A DNA stretch of 6,295 bases from the IMG/VR virus record IMGVR_UViG_2671180298_000001, one strand, 5' to 3'. A program made the translations under genes and the position numbers. The notes below the pieces were generated by a model that ran no database searches, was not told where the DNA came from, and saw only the letters and a program-made list of their open reading frames with translations. Source of the stretch: a virus. Taxonomy: Duplodnaviria; Heunggongvirae; Uroviricota; Caudoviricetes. Below, piece after piece: positions 1-6,295 of the stretch; within the stretch, counting starts at the first letter, position 1, and each line of letters begins with the position of its first letter.

Positions 1-1748
1 CGAATACTGATGCCGGAAGCAGCCTTTTTGGTCACAATCACCGTACAGTCGGTGATATTGCCTGCCCCCTGATTGCCTTTCTGGAAAATCTTAAACTCCA
101 GAGTGACGCTTCCCCTGCCACTCGGCATATCAATAACCGCACTGTAACTACCGGGAATGGCCCCTTTAGTTTCTCTGGATGCGATTAATACGCCGTTTTT
201 GCGAACTTCAAAACCATAACCCGTGTATCTTGTACCTCCCGGGTTATTACCACTTCCCGGATCGCTATACGCTATTCCGTTAAAGATAATGGGCGGAATA
301 ATAATCTGGCGGTCAAAGTTATGATCATCGCTGATGGTGACTGTAACCGTACCGTTTGGTGTTTCCGTGTTACCCCACGTACCGACTTTTTTCGGGAAGG
401 CTTTTGATACAGCTTTAACGAAATCCCCTCTGACCTGGGTCGCCTCCAGCATGCCCTTAATCGTACAGTTCTGGTTAATCGTGACATTGTTGAGCGTTCC
501 TGAGTTCGCATTCACACTACCACTGATATCCGCATTTTTAGCGGTCAGCTTTCCGTCTGATGTCAGGGAAAATACCGGAGGACTGCCACCGCTGGTAATG
601 GTGGGGGCCGTCAGGCGTTTCAGGAACACTTCATTCATGAATATCTGATCGCCCTGACCAACAAACATCGGCTTTGTGTTGCCATTCGCAGGATTAATCA
701 TCGCAATCCTGTCTGCTGCCAGCAGCACCTGACTCTGCATGCCGTCAGGGGTGTTCTCAATACCGGCACCGATACCCGCAATATAAAGGCGTCCGTCCTG
801 CATCTGCTGCAGCTTCACTGCCCACATGCTGTTCAGGTTATTATTTGTATCAACCTGAACCTTCTGTATCTGCTGGATTGCCGCACTCTGGTCTTCCAGT
901 TTCTTATTGACGGTCTGTGTTATTTCATTGCTGACATCCGTTATGGACGTCCTGATTTCAGTCAGGTCAGGCGCAAGCTGACCGTTATCAATCTGCGTCC
1001 ACAGCTCCTGAGCCAGATGGGTTTTCCCTATCTCGCCTTTGAAAAAATCCAGATAGCCTGATGCATCATCACTCGGCTGACCGACAGCCTCCACGAATGC
1101 CGATTTGCCAACGGTGTTCACACTGCGAACGTAAAAATAATAATCATGGCCCGGTTTGATATTGATACTGGCGGCTATCCAGTACAGTGCCGTACCAAGA
1201 TAACGCGCGCTGGTTTCAACCTGCCTGATATCCGCAATCCGTTTTTCCGAGAACCAGAACTCAAACTGTACCGTCGGGTCATAAACCGCAAGATGCGGCG
1301 TGGCGGTTATCTGAAAATAGCCCGGCGTCAGCTCAATCCGCGACGGCGCTGCCGGTGCGGCAATCCGGAACGATACCGACGCCGGATCGCCCTGCTGCCC
1401 CCACGCATTTACTGCCCGGACTGTCAGCCTGTAGTTCCCCAGAGCCAGTTGTGTGAAGCGGTAAGTGGTTTCCGTCGTCCGGGCCGTGCTGACCAGCCGC
1501 TCACGGCCGTCATCCGCTGCCACGGTCAGGCGAAGCAGGAAGCTCACGCCCTTCACCACCTTCGGCGTGTCCCAGCGCGCCAGCACCTGGTATTCCCCGC
1601 TGTCTGCGGTGACTTCTGCGGTCAGGTGCTGCACCGCTGGCGGCGTGACACCATTTACCGTGCCGCTCTGGTCGCCGTCAAAGTGCGCCCCGTTATCCAC
1701 GATGGCCTCTTTTTCCGGTAACCGGGGCAAATGATGAGTATCGTCCTG
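1..1748 (-). pseudogene. J: 3' portion (about 582 codons, running past the window start) of a lambda J-type host specificity / central tail fibre gene; no ATG start and no N-terminal half
   Basis: Minus-strand frame translated by hand is open from the codon after the V stop (1748) to position 1 with no stop. It reads ...[133 protein letters not shown]...[25 protein letters not shown]...[14 protein letters not shown], which matches my memory of the fibronectin-III-like middle region and C-terminal part of lambda gpJ. First in-frame ATG is only at 827..825. The ORF track misses it because there is no stop inside the window. Confidence 0.8.
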
Positions 1749-2492
1749 TTAACCTGCGGCGCTGACAGTCACCGCAGCCACAGCCACAAAATTCCCGTCA
1801 GCGGTCATGCCCACAATGCTGACACTGCCCTGCTTCACGCCTTTCACCGTGGCTACAAGCCCGTTCAGGGTCACCGTGGCAGTCTGTGGATCTGACGAAT
1901 GCACACTGATCGCTTTGTCACTGGCTCCGTCAGGTTTTACTGTAAAGGTCAGCGTGGTGGTTGCTCCCACTTTTACACTGGCAGATGCCGGTGCCACCGT
2001 CAGCCCGGTAACGCTCACTGTTTCAGTGCCTTCCTCTGCCAGATACGGACGCCCCACACCGCTGATTTTCACAGTGCGGGTCATCACGTCTTTTGAGGCA
2101 ATGGTTTTACCCAGTGAACTCAGCCAGCCACGGAAAACATCAACAGTGCCGTTGGGATATTTGATACGAAACGCGCAGACTTCACCGGAGTCGAACAACT
2201 GAACCAGTTTTTTCTGCCCGCTGTCACCCGGACGCCAGGCCAGCGTCGCCGAAGTATCACCGACTGATTTCTGCCCCTGGGTTGTCGTTTTCCAGTCTGC
2301 ATCTTCATCATCGAGATAAGTGTCATCTTCTGCATCAGCGGTCATTTCGCCAGGTTGTAGATCCTTCACCATCGCAAGACGCAACCAGTCAGTGTCCGAC
2401 AAAGGGTTCGCAAACGCATCGCCGTTGCCGGTATACATCCAGAACGTCGTTCCCGCACCTTTCGTTTTTGCCAGTGGATTTGGTGTGGTCAT
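1749..2492 (-). CDS. V: major tail tube protein, lambda gpV-like, with C-terminal Ig-like (Big_2) domain; 247 aa
   Basis: Protein MTTPNPLAKTKGAGTTFWMYTGNGDAFANPLSDTDW...YPNGTVDVFRGW... aligns along its length with remembered lambda gpV (246 aa). Start chosen at ATG 2492..2490, preceded by AAGGAGGTG with about 5 nt spacing; the track ORF (2567) begins 25 codons upstream inside the U gene. Stop TAA 1751..1749. Confidence 0.9.
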   Translation of the reverse strand: MTTPNPLAKTKGAGTTFWMYTGNGDAFANPLSDTDWLRLAMVKDLQPGEMTADAEDDTYLDDEDADWKTTTQGQKSVGDTSATLAWRPGDSGQKKLVQLFDSGEVCAFRIKYPNGTVDVFRGWLSSLGKTIASKDVMTRTVKISGVGRPYLAEEGTETVSVTGLTVAPASASVKVGATTTLTFTVKPDGASDKAISVHSSDPQTATVTLNGLVATVKGVKQGSVSIVGMTADGNFVAVAAVTVSAAG

Positions 2493-2502
2493 TACCACCT
2501 CC

Positions 2503-2916
2503 TTAATTCGTGTACGTGATCTGGTACGTGATTTCCGCCATCGCCCAGGTGGCCATCTCATTATCACGTTGATAGTTAAAACCGAGTGGGATCAGGGTGT
2601 CGATGAGTCCGGAAAGTGCCGGTACATCATTCAGGGCCGGGAAAATGGTGCTCTCCATCCACATATCCAGCTCTGAATCCGGTGCCTGTGCCCGGATGAA
2701 GACAGCAATATGCAGAACAGCCTGCCAGTCATCTTCATCCGTCATTTTTCCGGTGTACTGAGCATCACTCAGCCACACCGCCACGGCAGGCAGTTCCTGC
2801 GCATCAACAAATGCCGGAAGCCCGTCAAAAAACGTGGCGCTGTCTCCACACTGTTCCCGAAGGCGTGCCAGTACGACCTGGCGGATTTGTGTATGTCGAT
2901 TCATCGGGTCAGCCAT
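2503..2916 (-). CDS. U: tail terminator protein, lambda gpU-like (alternative start at 2904 would give 133 aa)
   Basis: ...ATFFDGLPAFVDAQELPAVAVWLSDAQYTG...APDSELDMWMESTIFPALNDVPALSGLIDT...ITYQITY matches remembered lambda gpU (ATFFDGRPAVFDE...PAVAVYLTGAEYTG...PDSELDAWMESRIYP...LTYVITYEM). ATG 2904..2902 overlaps the Z stop as ATGA, as in lambda Z/U; ATG 2916..2914 has GAGG only 2 nt upstream. Start uncertain between the two. Confidence 0.85.
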   Translation of the reverse strand: MADPMNRHTQIRQVVLARLREQCGDSATFFDGLPAFVDAQELPAVAVWLSDAQYTGKMTDEDDWQAVLHIAVFIRAQAPDSELDMWMESTIFPALNDVPALSGLIDTLIPLGFNYQRDNEMATWAMAEITYQITYTN

Positions 2917-3479
2917 AACCTCAGTTGTTGTTTCAGTGCATACCCCAGCTGTTTCGGCATTTCCGCAGCAATGATGCGGTCGCGGGCATCTTCAAATGCC
3001 TGTGTCAGCGGTCCGGACAGAGGGATTTTCACCACATCAATGGGGTAACGATTTTTGCCATCAATACGCCGCATCACATGCCAGCGACCATTCGCCAGTT
3101 GCTGAATAAACGCATCCCGGAAAAGATATTTACCCACCTTCAGCACGCTGCCACGGTACTGCAGTTTTCCACCACGCCGGGTCAGTCTGACCCGGGCGGT
3201 CCCCAGCTTAATGGCAGGCAGATTGCCCCGGTTAACGCGGATCCTGGCCGTCATTTTTCCTGACGGACTGGCTTTAAACACCCGGACACGCTGACGTACC
3301 AGTTTCAGGGGTATCCCTTTCACCTGGTTATCTCCCGCAACGGTATTCCCGGCAACCTGCCGGGTGGCAACCGAGACCGCTTTCTGTGCCACACGGTTTA
3401 TCGCCCATGCGCTGGCCTGTGGCACCATACGGGTATCAAGGCTGTTCAGATTGCGGATGGCATTCTCAAGCCCCTTCAT
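2901..3479 (-). CDS. Z: minor tail protein, lambda gpZ-like (tail completion); 192 aa
   Basis: 192 aa, the same length as lambda gpZ, basic protein, located between the FII-like and U-like genes exactly as in lambda. SD-like AGAGGTG about 5 nt upstream of ATG 3479..3477. Assignment is by position and size more than by remembered sequence. Confidence 0.75.
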   Translation of the reverse strand: MKGLENAIRNLNSLDTRMVPQASAWAINRVAQKAVSVATRQVAGNTVAGDNQVKGIPLKLVRQRVRVFKASPSGKMTARIRVNRGNLPAIKLGTARVRLTRRGGKLQYRGSVLKVGKYLFRDAFIQQLANGRWHVMRRIDGKNRYPIDVVKIPLSGPLTQAFEDARDRIIAAEMPKQLGYALKQQLRLWLTR

Positions 3480-3490
3480 CCCACACCTCT

Positions 3491-3766
3491 TTACTCAATA
3501 AAGATCATTGGCTTACCGTTAAAGCGTTCATGCCGTGTGACCGTCCAATGTTGTCCGTCATAAACAACGCGATCCCCGCGCCGTGGGCGGTATCCCGAAG
3601 AAAACACCACCAGAGAGACCGCAGGTCCGGACAAAGCATTCAGCTCTGCCAGTGTTTCTCCCGGGATCACAGTCATATCGACATCATTAATCGAGGCTGT
3701 CTTTCCCATCTTTCTGACCGTGATCGCATCCATACGCGCTGCCAGCCGGGAAAAGGGATCAGACAT
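3491..3766 (-). CDS. head-tail joining protein, lambda gpFII-like; 91 aa
   Basis: N-terminus MSDPFSRLAARMDAITVRKMGKTASI resembles lambda gpFII MADFDNLFDAAIARADETIRGYMGTSATI, and it sits directly upstream of Z. Start ATG 3766..3764 overlaps the stop of the preceding gene by 8 nt (translational coupling); no separate SD. Confidence 0.65.
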   Translation of the reverse strand: MSDPFSRLAARMDAITVRKMGKTASINDVDMTVIPGETLAELNALSGPAVSLVVFSSGYRPRRGDRVVYDGQHWTVTRHERFNGKPMIFIE

Positions 3767-4082
3767 TGAGTTTTACCGGCACTTCTTCTGCACTGGTTCC
3801 GGCATCTGCCCAGACAACCCCGACCAGCGGATCAGAGCCGCTGTTAGTCAGCTGAACTTTTCCGGACTTCAGATAAACCTTCTTACCCGTTTTCATGTCA
3901 TCCGTTTTCAGCTTAGGCAGCATAAACACACCTTCGGTCAGGCCGTCGCCTGTTTCACCCTGTGGAATATCGGTCAGCGCCACCGCAAAAACATCACCCA
4001 CCTGCACCAGGTCTCCGCTGCTGATGGCTGCACTGGCAACAATCGCCACCGTTTTTCCTTCTTCTACAAAATTCTTTGCCAT
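3759..4082 (-). CDS. small acidic phage head protein of the DUF2190 type (family often mislabelled as RecA/RadA recombinase in prophage annotations); 107 aa
   Basis: Protein MAKNFVEEGKTVAIVASAAISSGDLVQVGDVFAVALTDIPQGETGDGLTEGVFMLPK... Sits in the position lambda uses for D/FI, between capsid and FII. Start placed at ATG 4082..4080 with GGAG 6 nt upstream; the track start at 4127 lies inside the terminator hairpin region and is rejected. Confidence 0.6.
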   Translation of the reverse strand: MAKNFVEEGKTVAIVASAAISSGDLVQVGDVFAVALTDIPQGETGDGLTEGVFMLPKLKTDDMKTGKKVYLKSGKVQLTNSGSDPLVGVVWADAGTSAEEVPVKLNV

Positions 4083-4095
4083 AACTGTCTCCGCA

Positions 4096-4114
4096 CAGCC
4101 CCGTTCAGGGGCTG
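4096..4114 (-). other. perfect 7-bp GC-rich stem-loop (CAGCCCC-UGAAC-GGGGCUG on the transcript) ending 2 nt before the SD of the DUF2190 gene
   Basis: Plus strand 4096-4102 cagcccc and 4108-4114 ggggctg are exact reverse complements separated by 5 nt. No U-run follows in the transcript, so not an intrinsic terminator. Confidence 0.5.
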
Positions 4115-4125
4115 ATTTCAGGTAC

Positions 4126-4145
4126 AAAAAAAGCCCTTACGGGCC
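4126..4145 (-). terminator. candidate rho-independent terminator (probably partial) about 24 nt after the capsid stop
   Basis: Minus-strand transcript reads GGCCC-GUAA-GGGC followed by UUUUUUU (plus strand caaaaaaagcccttacgggcc). The stem is only 4-5 bp, so likely weak or attenuating. Confidence 0.4.
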
Positions 4146-4168
4146 ATCAGAGTTGTTGTCTGCGACGT

Positions 4169-6127
4169 TTACGCCGTACATTTCACCAGACCGCGGTGAT
4201 CAACTGGCGCGACACCGGCGTCAATACGCACTTTCGTTGTCACGCCATCCACACTGAAGCCCTCCATCTGATCAATATATGGCGTATCCACACCGTTGAG
4301 ATAAGCCACTTCAATCGTATCGGAGCCTTTTGACGCAGCCAGGTAGAAGGTGGTCTGGCTGTTATCATCAAGACGGGGCTCTGCAATAACGGTCGCAAAA
4401 TCTTTCACCGGGTTAATAATACCGGCGTTAATGTCAGCCCCCTTGACACTTGAGGAGCGAATGACCTGGTTAGCAACAGACTCCATCGCCGTCGGTACCA
4501 GTACGAACGCAGGACGAATATTCAGATGACGCTCCCCCTCTTTCTGAACGCGCATCAACTGGCGGGCTTTATCCAGCGATGCCACGTCCATTGCAGCGCT
4601 CTCCAGTACGTTTGCATGTTTCGCTTTATCGAACAGACTTACATTATCTGTGGAGATTTTCGGGTTAGACGTCAGAATGGCATAAACCAGATCGGCAATA
4701 GTGGATTTCGCCGCACGGCCCAGTTTCATCGGGACATCGGTCAGCATATTCAGATCATCATTGATAATGGCCTGACGGGTGATACTGAACAGCTCGCCAT
4801 AGGTCGCCAGTGCAATAGTGGCCTGTTTATCTCCGGTGGTGACGTATTTATATTCCGCCCCTTCACGCACCTGACGCAGAGCACTGAAGCCCCCCATACC
4901 CACACGATGGGCAATTTTAAAATCAGACAACTGACCTTTCCGCGTCCACTGTTCATAGGTTTCAGGGGCATCTTCCCAGCCCTGCAGAATGGCTTTGTTC
5001 GCAACATCCAGCAGAATATTACCGAAGTCAGACGTACTGTGTGTGAACGCCGCACCGACCATCTGCATCGGGTTATAACTGGAAACCCCAATACCCCGTT
5101 CAGTCAGTGACATACGGGCATATTCACGCAGGGTCATCCCGTTGTAGACATTATCACGTTCGGTTTTTTCAAATCCGGCACGCGCCATCAGCGCCTGGCG
5201 GATCCCGTCCCCCACAAAATTACCGTTTCCGGCATAAATATGAGCCGGGGTATTTTTATTGGATGGCGTGGACTCGCGCCCCATCTCGTTCAACAGCTTT
5301 TCGCGGGCCTGCTCCAGCGAACATTCAGGATCGGCAAGACACTGAGCCTGCAGCGTCTGATAACGCCCGCCAAACATGGCAAACAGATCATTAATACCGT
5401 TTACACGCGCTTTTTGCTCTGCCAGTACCTGCGCACGGATACTGTTTTCATCCACCACGGGTGCTGCTGCCTGCACTGGCGTCCGGGAGGCTGCAGGTTC
5501 ATCATCCTGTACGCGTGGAGCACTGTTGCGTGGCGGAGTAATCATGTTTCGAATGGATTCCGGCATCTTTTTAAATTCCTCTGTACGTTTTGACTGAATA
5601 CATGCCATTGCCTTAACGGCTGGCGTCACCTGATCAGCAAATCCCTGTGCCAGACATTCGGCACCGGACATCCAGGTCTCATCCGCCAGCATGGCAGCAA
5701 TTTCATCGGTGGTTTTCCCGGTTTTCTGTGCATAAGCGGGTAACAGAACCGCCTCAACCTTATCGAGCAGGTCGGCATAGGTGCGCATGTCCTCCGCATC
5801 ACCGCCCGTAAAGCCAAATGGTTTATGAATCATCATGAAGGTGTTTTCCGGCATAATGACCGGGTTTCCCACCATCGCAATGACCGACGCCATTGACGCC
5901 GCCACACCGTCGACATAAACGGTAATGGACGCACCATGTGTTTTCAGCGCATTAAAAATGGCGATGCCTTCAAAGACATCGCCACCCGGTGAATTAATAT
6001 GGAGATTAATGTGGGTGATATCGCCCAGTGCATTCAGATCACTGATAAACTGCTTCGCTGTAACACCCCAGAAACCAATCTCGTCATAAATATAAATATC
6101 CGCGTCACTCTGGTGACCAGCCTGCAT
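4169..6127 (-). CDS. prohead protease (ClpP / S14 family) fused via a scaffold-like linker to an HK97-fold major capsid protein; 652 aa from the chosen start
   Basis: N-terminal part has ClpP hallmarks: IYIYDEIG...INSPGGDV...VDGVAASMASVIAMVG (serine motif, Ser codon 5896..5894) and MMIHKPFGF (histidine, codon 5827..5825). Middle is a low-complexity, helix-prone linker (ENSIRAQVLAEQKARVNG...LEQAREKLLNEMG). C-terminal ~330 aa look like a phage major capsid protein. Start set at ATG 6127..6125 (MQAGHQSDADIYIYDE), 13 nt after the stop of the upstream gene; the track start at 6292 would overlap that gene. Confidence 0.85.
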   Translation of the reverse strand: MQAGHQSDADIYIYDEIGFWGVTAKQFISDLNALGDITHINLHINSPGGDVFEGIAIFNALKTHGASITVYVDGVAASMASVIAMVGNPVIMPENTFMMIHKPFGFTGGDAEDMRTYADLLDKVEAVLLPAYAQKTGKTTDEIAAMLADETWMSGAECLAQGFADQVTPAVKAMACIQSKRTEEFKKMPESIRNMITPPRNSAPRVQDDEPAASRTPVQAAAPVVDENSIRAQVLAEQKARVNGINDLFAMFGGRYQTLQAQCLADPECSLEQAREKLLNEMGRESTPSNKNTPAHIYAGNGNFVGDGIRQALMARAGFEKTERDNVYNGMTLREYARMSLTERGIGVSSYNPMQMVGAAFTHSTSDFGNILLDVANKAILQGWEDAPETYEQWTRKGQLSDFKIAHRVGMGGFSALRQVREGAEYKYVTTGDKQATIALATYGELFSITRQAIINDDLNMLTDVPMKLGRAAKSTIADLVYAILTSNPKISTDNVSLFDKAKHANVLESAAMDVASLDKARQLMRVQKEGERHLNIRPAFVLVPTAMESVANQVIRSSSVKGADINAGIINPVKDFATVIAEPRLDDNSQTTFYLAASKGSDTIEVAYLNGVDTPYIDQMEGFSVDGVTTKVRIDAGVAPVDHRGLVKCTA

Positions 6128-6140
6128 CCTGAACCAGGAA

Positions 6141-6295
6141 TTATTCTTCGGACTGGTCGTCGGTGTGCTGCGGCTCCTGTCGTTTCGTTGCGGCACTGCT
6201 GCCTCCTTTATCACTGGCCGGATCGGTATCAAATACCAGATCCAGCTTGCGGTTTTCATCAATTTCGGCCTTGCGCTGAGAGATCCCCTCATAAT
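6141..6295 (-). CDS. 3' end of upstream gene, probably the portal protein (partial, continues beyond window end)
   Basis: A different minus frame is open from the window edge to TAA at 6143..6141 and reads ...YEGISQRKAEIDENRKLDLVFDTDPASDKGGSSAATKRQEPQHTDDQSEE*, a hydrophilic acidic tail typical of a real C-terminus. The third frame has a stop at 6291..6289. Portal identity is inferred from the conserved portal-protease-capsid gene order only. Confidence 0.5.
   Translation of the reverse strand, partial: YEGISQRKAEIDENRKLDLVFDTDPASDKGGSSAATKRQEPQHTDDQSEE

Follow-up and report, generated by a model that had tools for sequence, protein, structure and literature searches.

The stretch of viral DNA considered here (hereafter the window) comprises 6,295 nt of a Caudoviricetes record, IMGVR_UViG_2671180298_000001, and its left edge falls within a gene for a lambda-like tail tip protein, J. 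An earlier note made from the letters of the sequence had proposed that the distal part of this protein departs from the LamB-binding domain of lambda gpJ, with a mosaic switch point and a different receptor specificity as the consequence. The locus therefore raises the question of which J allele it carries, which receptor that allele is likely to recognize, and whether the gene bearing it could still serve a phage tail. The reading that we regard as highly probable is that this protein's receptor-binding domain (RBD) is the phage 434 allele, predicted to be directed at OmpC, and that it resides on a non-functional, 5′-truncated relic of J within a defective prophage.

Domain order and mosaic structure of the J fragment

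Translation of the reverse strand across window positions 1-1799 exactly reproduces, up to the left edge, the J sequence quoted in the earlier note. The reading frame, here termed J′, is equivalent by alignment to residues ~592-1132 of lambda J and is cut by the window's left edge one codon ahead of its stop (Table 1). Only the final residue, R, is missing, the corresponding CGT codon and the TGA that follows it being visible in a Logan contig (L016). A phmmer search of PDB sequences matched J′ to lambda gpJ (8iyk_J) with an E value of 6.8e-236, and Pfam places four domains along the fragment, in the order Ig_J (aa 28-132; E 8.7e-42), Ig_J_second (aa 134-236; 2.4e-40), Phage_Tail_Tip (1e-30), and Ig_GpJ_C (1.6e-25). 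J′ thus displays the C-terminal fibre architecture of gpJ, in which two Ig/FNIII domains are followed by the tail-tip fibre and an Ig-like RBD.

Table 1. Features of the window, with residue numbers counted along the J′ fragment
Feature	Window positions	J′ residues	Strand	Description
J′ (5′-truncated J)	3-1748		minus	582 in-frame codons; from translation, alignments and Pfam
FNIII-1 and FNIII-2	1038-1721	10-237	minus	95.6% identical to lambda
Shaft and upper fibre (second mosaic block)	714-1037	238-345	minus	31.5% identical to lambda
Lower central straight fibre (beta prism)	462-713	346-429	minus	83.3% identical to lambda, 90.5% to 434
Distal segment (linker and RBD)	3-461	430-582	minus	36.2% identical to lambda, 95.5% to 434, 98.7% to ev243
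Fortuitous GAGG, then five bases, then GTG	1706-1709 (GAGG), 1698-1700 (GTG)		minus	Inside J coding sequence
Deletion junction	1715-1720			CCGGTA, present both in the V-G intergenic region and at J codon ~591
Major tail tube gene V	1749-2492		minus	247 aa, C-terminal Big_2 Ig-like domain; TAA stop
IS10-like (IS4-family) terminus	6276-6295			Disrupts the portal gene at its 3′ end; located upstream of the ClpP/capsid fusion gene

Identities for each segment were counted from an alignment with the J proteins of lambda (NC_001416), 434, ev243, and a second E. coli prophage. As judged from these aligned sequences, J′ is a mosaic relative to lambda, with lambda-like FNIII domains, a shaft and upper fibre of the ev243 type, a lambda-like lower fibre, and an RBD of the 434 type. 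The names used for the second mosaic block, which corresponds to the alpha-helical shaft plus the uppermost part of the beta-prism fibre, follow the structure of the lambda tail (PMC11101478). This block is 32.4% identical to 434 and 100% identical to ev243, and the underlying DNA is 3-35% identical to lambda across window 940-1030, as compared with 87-92% in the lower fibre (window ~490-670). In the alignments, the block contains 28 residues more than lambda and 434, located at approximately window 897-989, and these would lengthen the central fibre. Because they are common to ev243-type phages, the additional residues are compatible with function. Neither the second mosaic block nor the 5′ truncation of J had been recognized in the earlier note. 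Its statement that the protein follows lambda gpJ as far as the sequence ...NQNCTI is borne out for the FNIII domains and for the lower fibre, but it does not hold for the strongly divergent block that lies between them.

The distal switch point, which had been proposed to occur at ~480, was located by comparing DNA in 60-nt windows. Proximal to the switch (window ~490-640), the DNA is 90-92% identical to lambda; identity stands at 92% for 548-489, at 63% for 488-429, and at 40-50% beyond. Distal to the switch, the DNA is 98-100% identical to both 434 and ev243 and just 40-60% identical to lambda, and BLAST detected no DNA-level match to lambda distal to window ~440. When window 1-520 is compared with 434, identity is 98-100% in most of the 60-nt windows and 85-93% in a few. 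The sliding-window analysis therefore reveals a sharp boundary and places it at window ~470-500, in agreement with the position originally suggested.

The distal receptor-binding domain and its predicted receptor

Across the distal segment, amino acid identity to lambda J (residues ~985-1132) amounts to 36.2%, with five indels, confirming the suspicion that the last ~150 residues are unlike those of the LamB-binding allele. Pairwise and five-way alignments, including the J proteins of lambda, 434, and ev243, likewise reveal that the C-terminal end is not lambda-like throughout. The Pfam family Ig_GpJ_C (PF12421), described as the C-terminal receptor binding domain of tip attachment protein J, spans aa 447-582 (window 3-410) over the full length of the model. 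An AF2 model of the distal domain, built with 27 homologues, predicts the RBD fold of lambda and A8 gpJ with pLDDT values of 80-96 across the RBD; the model represents a monomer of a natively trimeric fibre, and its confidence is low in the fibre portion (pLDDT 52-57). The four best fold matches to the modeled RBD in the PDB, as found by Foldseek, are 8xck and 8xcj, which are the lambda central fibre in its closed and LamB-bound states, and 9wca and 9wcb, the corresponding closed and OmpC-bound states of the A8 gpJ fibre. Their E values range from 4e-17 to 2e-15, and the next matches have E values of 1e-4. Given that it shares both a Pfam family and a fold with the lambda RBD, the distal domain is a homologue of that domain and not an unrelated module.

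The allele itself can be recognized from its near-identity to the J protein of phage 434 (UMO75286.1, OL657226), which is the h434 host-range determinant. The last 153 residues of the two proteins are 95.5% identical without indels, corresponding to 147 identical positions among 154 aligned columns. One of the seven differences is merely the missing last residue, and the remaining six are substitutions (N465D, S495D, R545G, I554V, Q556H, and G561R), three of which lie in predicted loops. Four independent 434 or h434 records agree on this reference sequence, and the record named 'Lambda h434 imm21' has the same J as 434. By this degree of identity, the difference between the distal domain and lambda is one that is already known, as it corresponds to the long-known 434 host-range version. 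The modular C terminus of J is the textbook determinant of host range among lambdoid phages, and lambda h434 hybrids have made use of the 434 allele for decades.

Beyond the RBD, J′ and 434 J have the same domain order and are 95.6% identical in the FNIII domains. However, 434 J is lambda-like in the shaft and upper fibre, where J′ is 32% identical to it and 28 residues longer, and 434 J possesses the N-terminal ~590 residues that J′ lacks. The J proteins of ev243 (NC_049955, YP_009910058.1) and of other phages of this type (mEp332, Kati, PhiR42_1, phiSTEC1575-Stx2k, Ayreon, phi458, and cdtI) are 96-99% identical to J′ over all 574 alignable residues, both mosaic blocks included, and ev243 DNA is 98.3% identical to window 1-1720. 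In the ev243-type phages, J retains its full length (1165 aa in ev243) within complete K-I-J-lom-stf tail modules, whereas J′ is truncated. Lambda gpJ (NP_040600.1; 8iyk, 8xck, 8xcj) shares its family, domain order, and RBD fold with J′, but its receptor is LamB, and it is 36% identical to J′ in the RBD and 31.5% in the shaft and upper fibre.

Another OmpC-binding lambdoid RBD is found in the A8 gpJ chimera (9wca; 9wcb with the OmpC of E. coli EDL933), which exhibits the same fold as the J′ model (Foldseek E values of 2e-16 and 2e-15). We considered whether the J′ RBD might be the A8 allele and rejected this assignment, as the two are ~52% identical over the 199 residues of fibre plus RBD. Because the A8 allele is distinct from the 434 type, there are at least two lineages of OmpC-binding J RBDs. 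PDB searches returned no solved structure for an RBD of the 434 type, despite its being one of the most frequent J alleles in E. coli.

Phage 434 uses OmpC as its receptor, lambda equipped with the J gene of 434 binds OmpC rather than LamB, and the specificity of J is set by its C-terminal part (PMC11101478; PMC3509688). Since the RBD of J′ is 95.5% identical to that of 434, OmpC is the best-supported and likely receptor of this domain. A receptor specificity unlike that of lambda, which the earlier note had anticipated, would be the expected consequence of this identity to a J protein that uses OmpC. Our searches of the literature yielded no published receptor for the 99%-identical proteins of ev243, mEp332, Kati, and PhiR42_1, and the same was true of phi458, Ayreon, and the PhiR series; a large receptor-screen preprint treats only GpJ of the Drexlerviridae type.

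In an intact virion, J is trimeric and is built of the hub domains, a pair of FNIII domains, the helical shaft, the beta-prism fibre, and, at its C terminus, a beta-sandwich RBD whose bottom loops engage a trimeric outer-membrane porin. When lambda encounters LamB, these loops insert into the porin, the bases of the RBD spread, the fibre twists, and the shaft flips, after which the FNIII strings are released and dissociate and the tail tube opens (PMC11101478). The conservation of the FNIII domains, the lower fibre, and the RBD scaffold suggests that the same mechanism would be applied to a different porin, with the 434 allele, on the strength of its 95.5% identity, presumably steering this machinery to OmpC rather than LamB.

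An alternative that we regard as rather unlikely is that this domain, despite being of the 434 type, has acquired another receptor, such as OmpF, LamB, or one particular OmpC variant only, by way of the six substitutions. Three of these occupy predicted loops, related gpJ chimeras are able to tell the OmpC allele of MG1655 from that of EDL933, and lambda J has been reported to gain the use of OmpF in addition through point mutations, for which a few substitutions suffice (PMC11101478). However, the domain remains 95.5% identical to that of 434 without a single indel, and the same allele (97-100%) occurs in phages from K-12 hosts, including mEp332 (MG1655) and Ayreon (a K-12 derivative), whose isolation or propagation on such strains is compatible with recognition of a K-12 porin, for instance OmpC. 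OmpC thus remains the favored receptor, although the fine specificity of this RBD for OmpC variants could differ from that of 434 because of these six substitutions and the placement of three of them in predicted loops. OmpC alleles vary among strains, and the engineered A8 and 1A2 gpJ chimeras discriminate between them. It could also be supposed that the divergence from lambda arose by pseudogene decay and not by recombination with a functional allele, as J′ is 5′-truncated and lies within a defective prophage. This explanation has next to no probability: there are zero stop codons or frameshifts across the 582 codons, and the divergence from lambda is limited to sharply bounded blocks rather than being evenly spread. 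Moreover, the RBD DNA is 100% identical to that of full-length annotated gpJ genes in complete genomes, and the J′ protein is 99% identical to J from isolated phages. Decay is refuted as the cause by these intact, identical gpJ genes, by the identity to phage J proteins, and by the confinement of the divergence to blocks, all of which are consistent with a 434-type allele obtained by recombination.

A tail-operon deletion and an IS10-like insertion in the source prophage

The remainder of the window encodes a lambdoid head-tail module on the minus strand, comprising a ClpP-protease/major-capsid fusion, a cement protein, a Gifsy-2-type head-tail protein, Z, U, and V. The V protein contains Phage_TTP_12 (E 6e-67) and Big_2 domains by Pfam, and its counterpart in the intact prophage of E. 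coli UTME-8 (L005) is designated 'phage tail protein' in RefSeq. BLAST comparison with that prophage revealed two matches, in which window 1715-6276 corresponds to L005 14001-18563 (99.93% identity) and window 1-1720 corresponds to L005 4338-6057, the 3′ 1,720 nt of UTME-8 gpJ (94.8% identity). The ~7.9 kb that separates the two matches in UTME-8 is absent from the window, and with it G, T, H, M, L, K, I, and the hub domains of J, which occupy its first ~590 codons. The two matches overlap by the six nucleotides of the junction listed in Table 1, and a short microhomology overlap of this kind is typical of illegitimate recombination.

As a result of the deletion, the J′ frame opens 34 nt past the stop codon of V, at J residue ~591, and the ~590 N-terminal residues that form the hub and close the tail tube are missing. 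The operon context of J is therefore preserved on one side only: G-T-H-M-L-K-I are deleted upstream, whereas lom and stf are present downstream in L016. J′ is not functional as a tail component in its own prophage, and its RBD represents a still-intact relic that could, at most, supply sequence to incoming lambdoid phages in an exchange of host range. The absence of stop codons and frameshifts, together with the 99% identity of J′ to J from isolated phages, suggests that the deletion is recent.

A search for proteins identical to the predicted 567-aa J′ ORF led to contigs that read through the junction between V and J′, one from each of the sequencing runs ERR6160922, ERR6160923, and ERR6160924. 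Identity to window 1-6279 is 99.98% for two of the three, and the third matches 1-2941 at 100%. The ten loci reached through the V protein all exhibit an intact V-G-T-H arrangement and lack the junction. The junction was also found in none of 5,426 complete E. coli genomes, nor among GTDB species representatives or JGI metagenome contigs. This absence could indicate that the junction is an assembly artefact that conjoins two lambdoid prophages, J in reality being full length, and the several similar prophages carried by each E. coli genome (with a median of 4 matching places) would provide the opportunity for such an error. We consider this explanation highly improbable, however, because assemblies of three separate runs arrived at this junction independently, because the overlap at the joint is just 6 bp and thus far below assembler k-mer sizes, and because comparable yet different tail-operon deletions leave a J 3′ remnant elsewhere, as exemplified by the fusion of T and J′ in FDAARGOS_433. 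Given its presence on contigs from three runs, the deletion that joins V to J′ is real but rare.

A further lesion is apparent at the right edge of the window, where the sequence diverges from all related prophages from position 6277 onward. The departing 20-mer, CTGAGAGATCCCCTCATAAT, was found at 57 loci and is multicopy in E. coli and Shigella. In one of these loci (L022), it ends an element encoding a 402-aa IS4-family transposase (NF033591, E 1.5e-120), which assigns the terminus to the IS4 family, although the window contains just 19-20 nt of the element. From its end sequence, we take this element to be IS10. Otherwise identical Logan contigs lack the IS10-like insertion. A 707-aa ORF (4169-6292) has an extended N terminus that begins at an ATG (6290-6292) and derives from the IS sequence; the normal product is 675 aa in length. 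The source prophage thus bears two lesions, the insertion in its portal gene and the deletion of tail genes.

In L016, the region 3′ of J′ (10521-20450) contains lom, a gene for a 1252-aa side tail fibre (stf) with a Peptidase_S74 domain, and three small ORFs. Beyond these lie prfC, osmY, a DUF1328 gene, and a patatin-family gene. Because prfC and osmY follow the stf region, the end of the prophage adjoins prfC.

Prevalence of the allele and recurrence of J 3′ remnants

The RBD carried by this relic is widespread. In tblastn searches, the 153-aa domain was detected at 90% amino acid identity or higher in 74 phage records, which include mEp460, 2B8, and ev207 (sharing the J of 434), cdtI, mEp332, Kati, and phi458, as well as many Stx1a, Stx2a, and Stx2c phages. 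All remaining J proteins are 36-44% identical to the RBD and form several discrete groups, with lambda at 36.5%. Eighteen phage records are 95-99% identical over the 574 alignable amino acids, including the shaft block. The DNA encoding the RBD is present at 90% identity or higher in 2,113 of 5,426 complete E. coli genomes (~39%), and the 480 nt of window 1-480 occur at 100% DNA identity within annotated full-length gpJ genes in at least 12 such genomes.

In the course of these comparisons, we observed that 17 records giving Campylobacter jejuni as the host match this E. coli lambdoid J. For example, 'Campylobacter phage CJLB-4' (MW057783.1; 48,361 bp) yields an RBD score exactly equal to that of lambda itself, and this record seems to be lambda DNA that was submitted as a phage of Campylobacter.

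Partial J genes have also arisen by other routes. A different deletion that retains the 3′ end of J creates a fusion between T and J′ in the complete genomes of FDAARGOS_433 (L003 5551-7378) and IH5, and this remnant carries a third RBD allele. In addition, five proteins (P0005, P0006, P0032, P0041, and P0047) combine Pfam matches to tail L, U, or T with a J RBD. The recurrence of J 3′ remnants could mean, though we consider this improbable, that they are retained for a reason.

One such reason would be translation of the remnant. The deletion has left the fortuitous GAGG motif near the 5′ end of J′, and a gene caller used the GTG codon that follows it (Table 1), giving the 567-aa J′ ORF, with its final R included (P0121; L016 8747-10450); the 577-aa ORF that would begin at a TTG start is not in the protein collection. 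V and J′ share a reading frame and are separated by one TAA. We considered a readthrough fusion of V with J′ and treated the in-frame arrangement as coincidence, as it has a one-in-three chance of arising. If the 567-aa product were made, it is predicted to contain the trimerizing shaft, the fibre, and the OmpC-type RBD without the hub, and such a free fibre could occupy OmpC, or mask it, on the lysogen or on neighboring cells, thereby excluding OmpC-dependent phages. Under this scenario, or if the remnant were a host-range cassette kept by selection for recombining with lambdoid phages that enter the cell, the recurrent deletions that spare the 3′ end of J would reflect selection rather than chance. 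We view either version as a long shot, and continue to favor a non-functional relic that bears a 434-type RBD.

For a relic of this kind, the finding has little significance beyond correct annotation. The RBD should be labeled as 434-type, with OmpC rather than LamB as its predicted receptor, and the J locus should be labeled as a 5′-truncated remnant within a defective prophage that also carries an IS10-like insertion.
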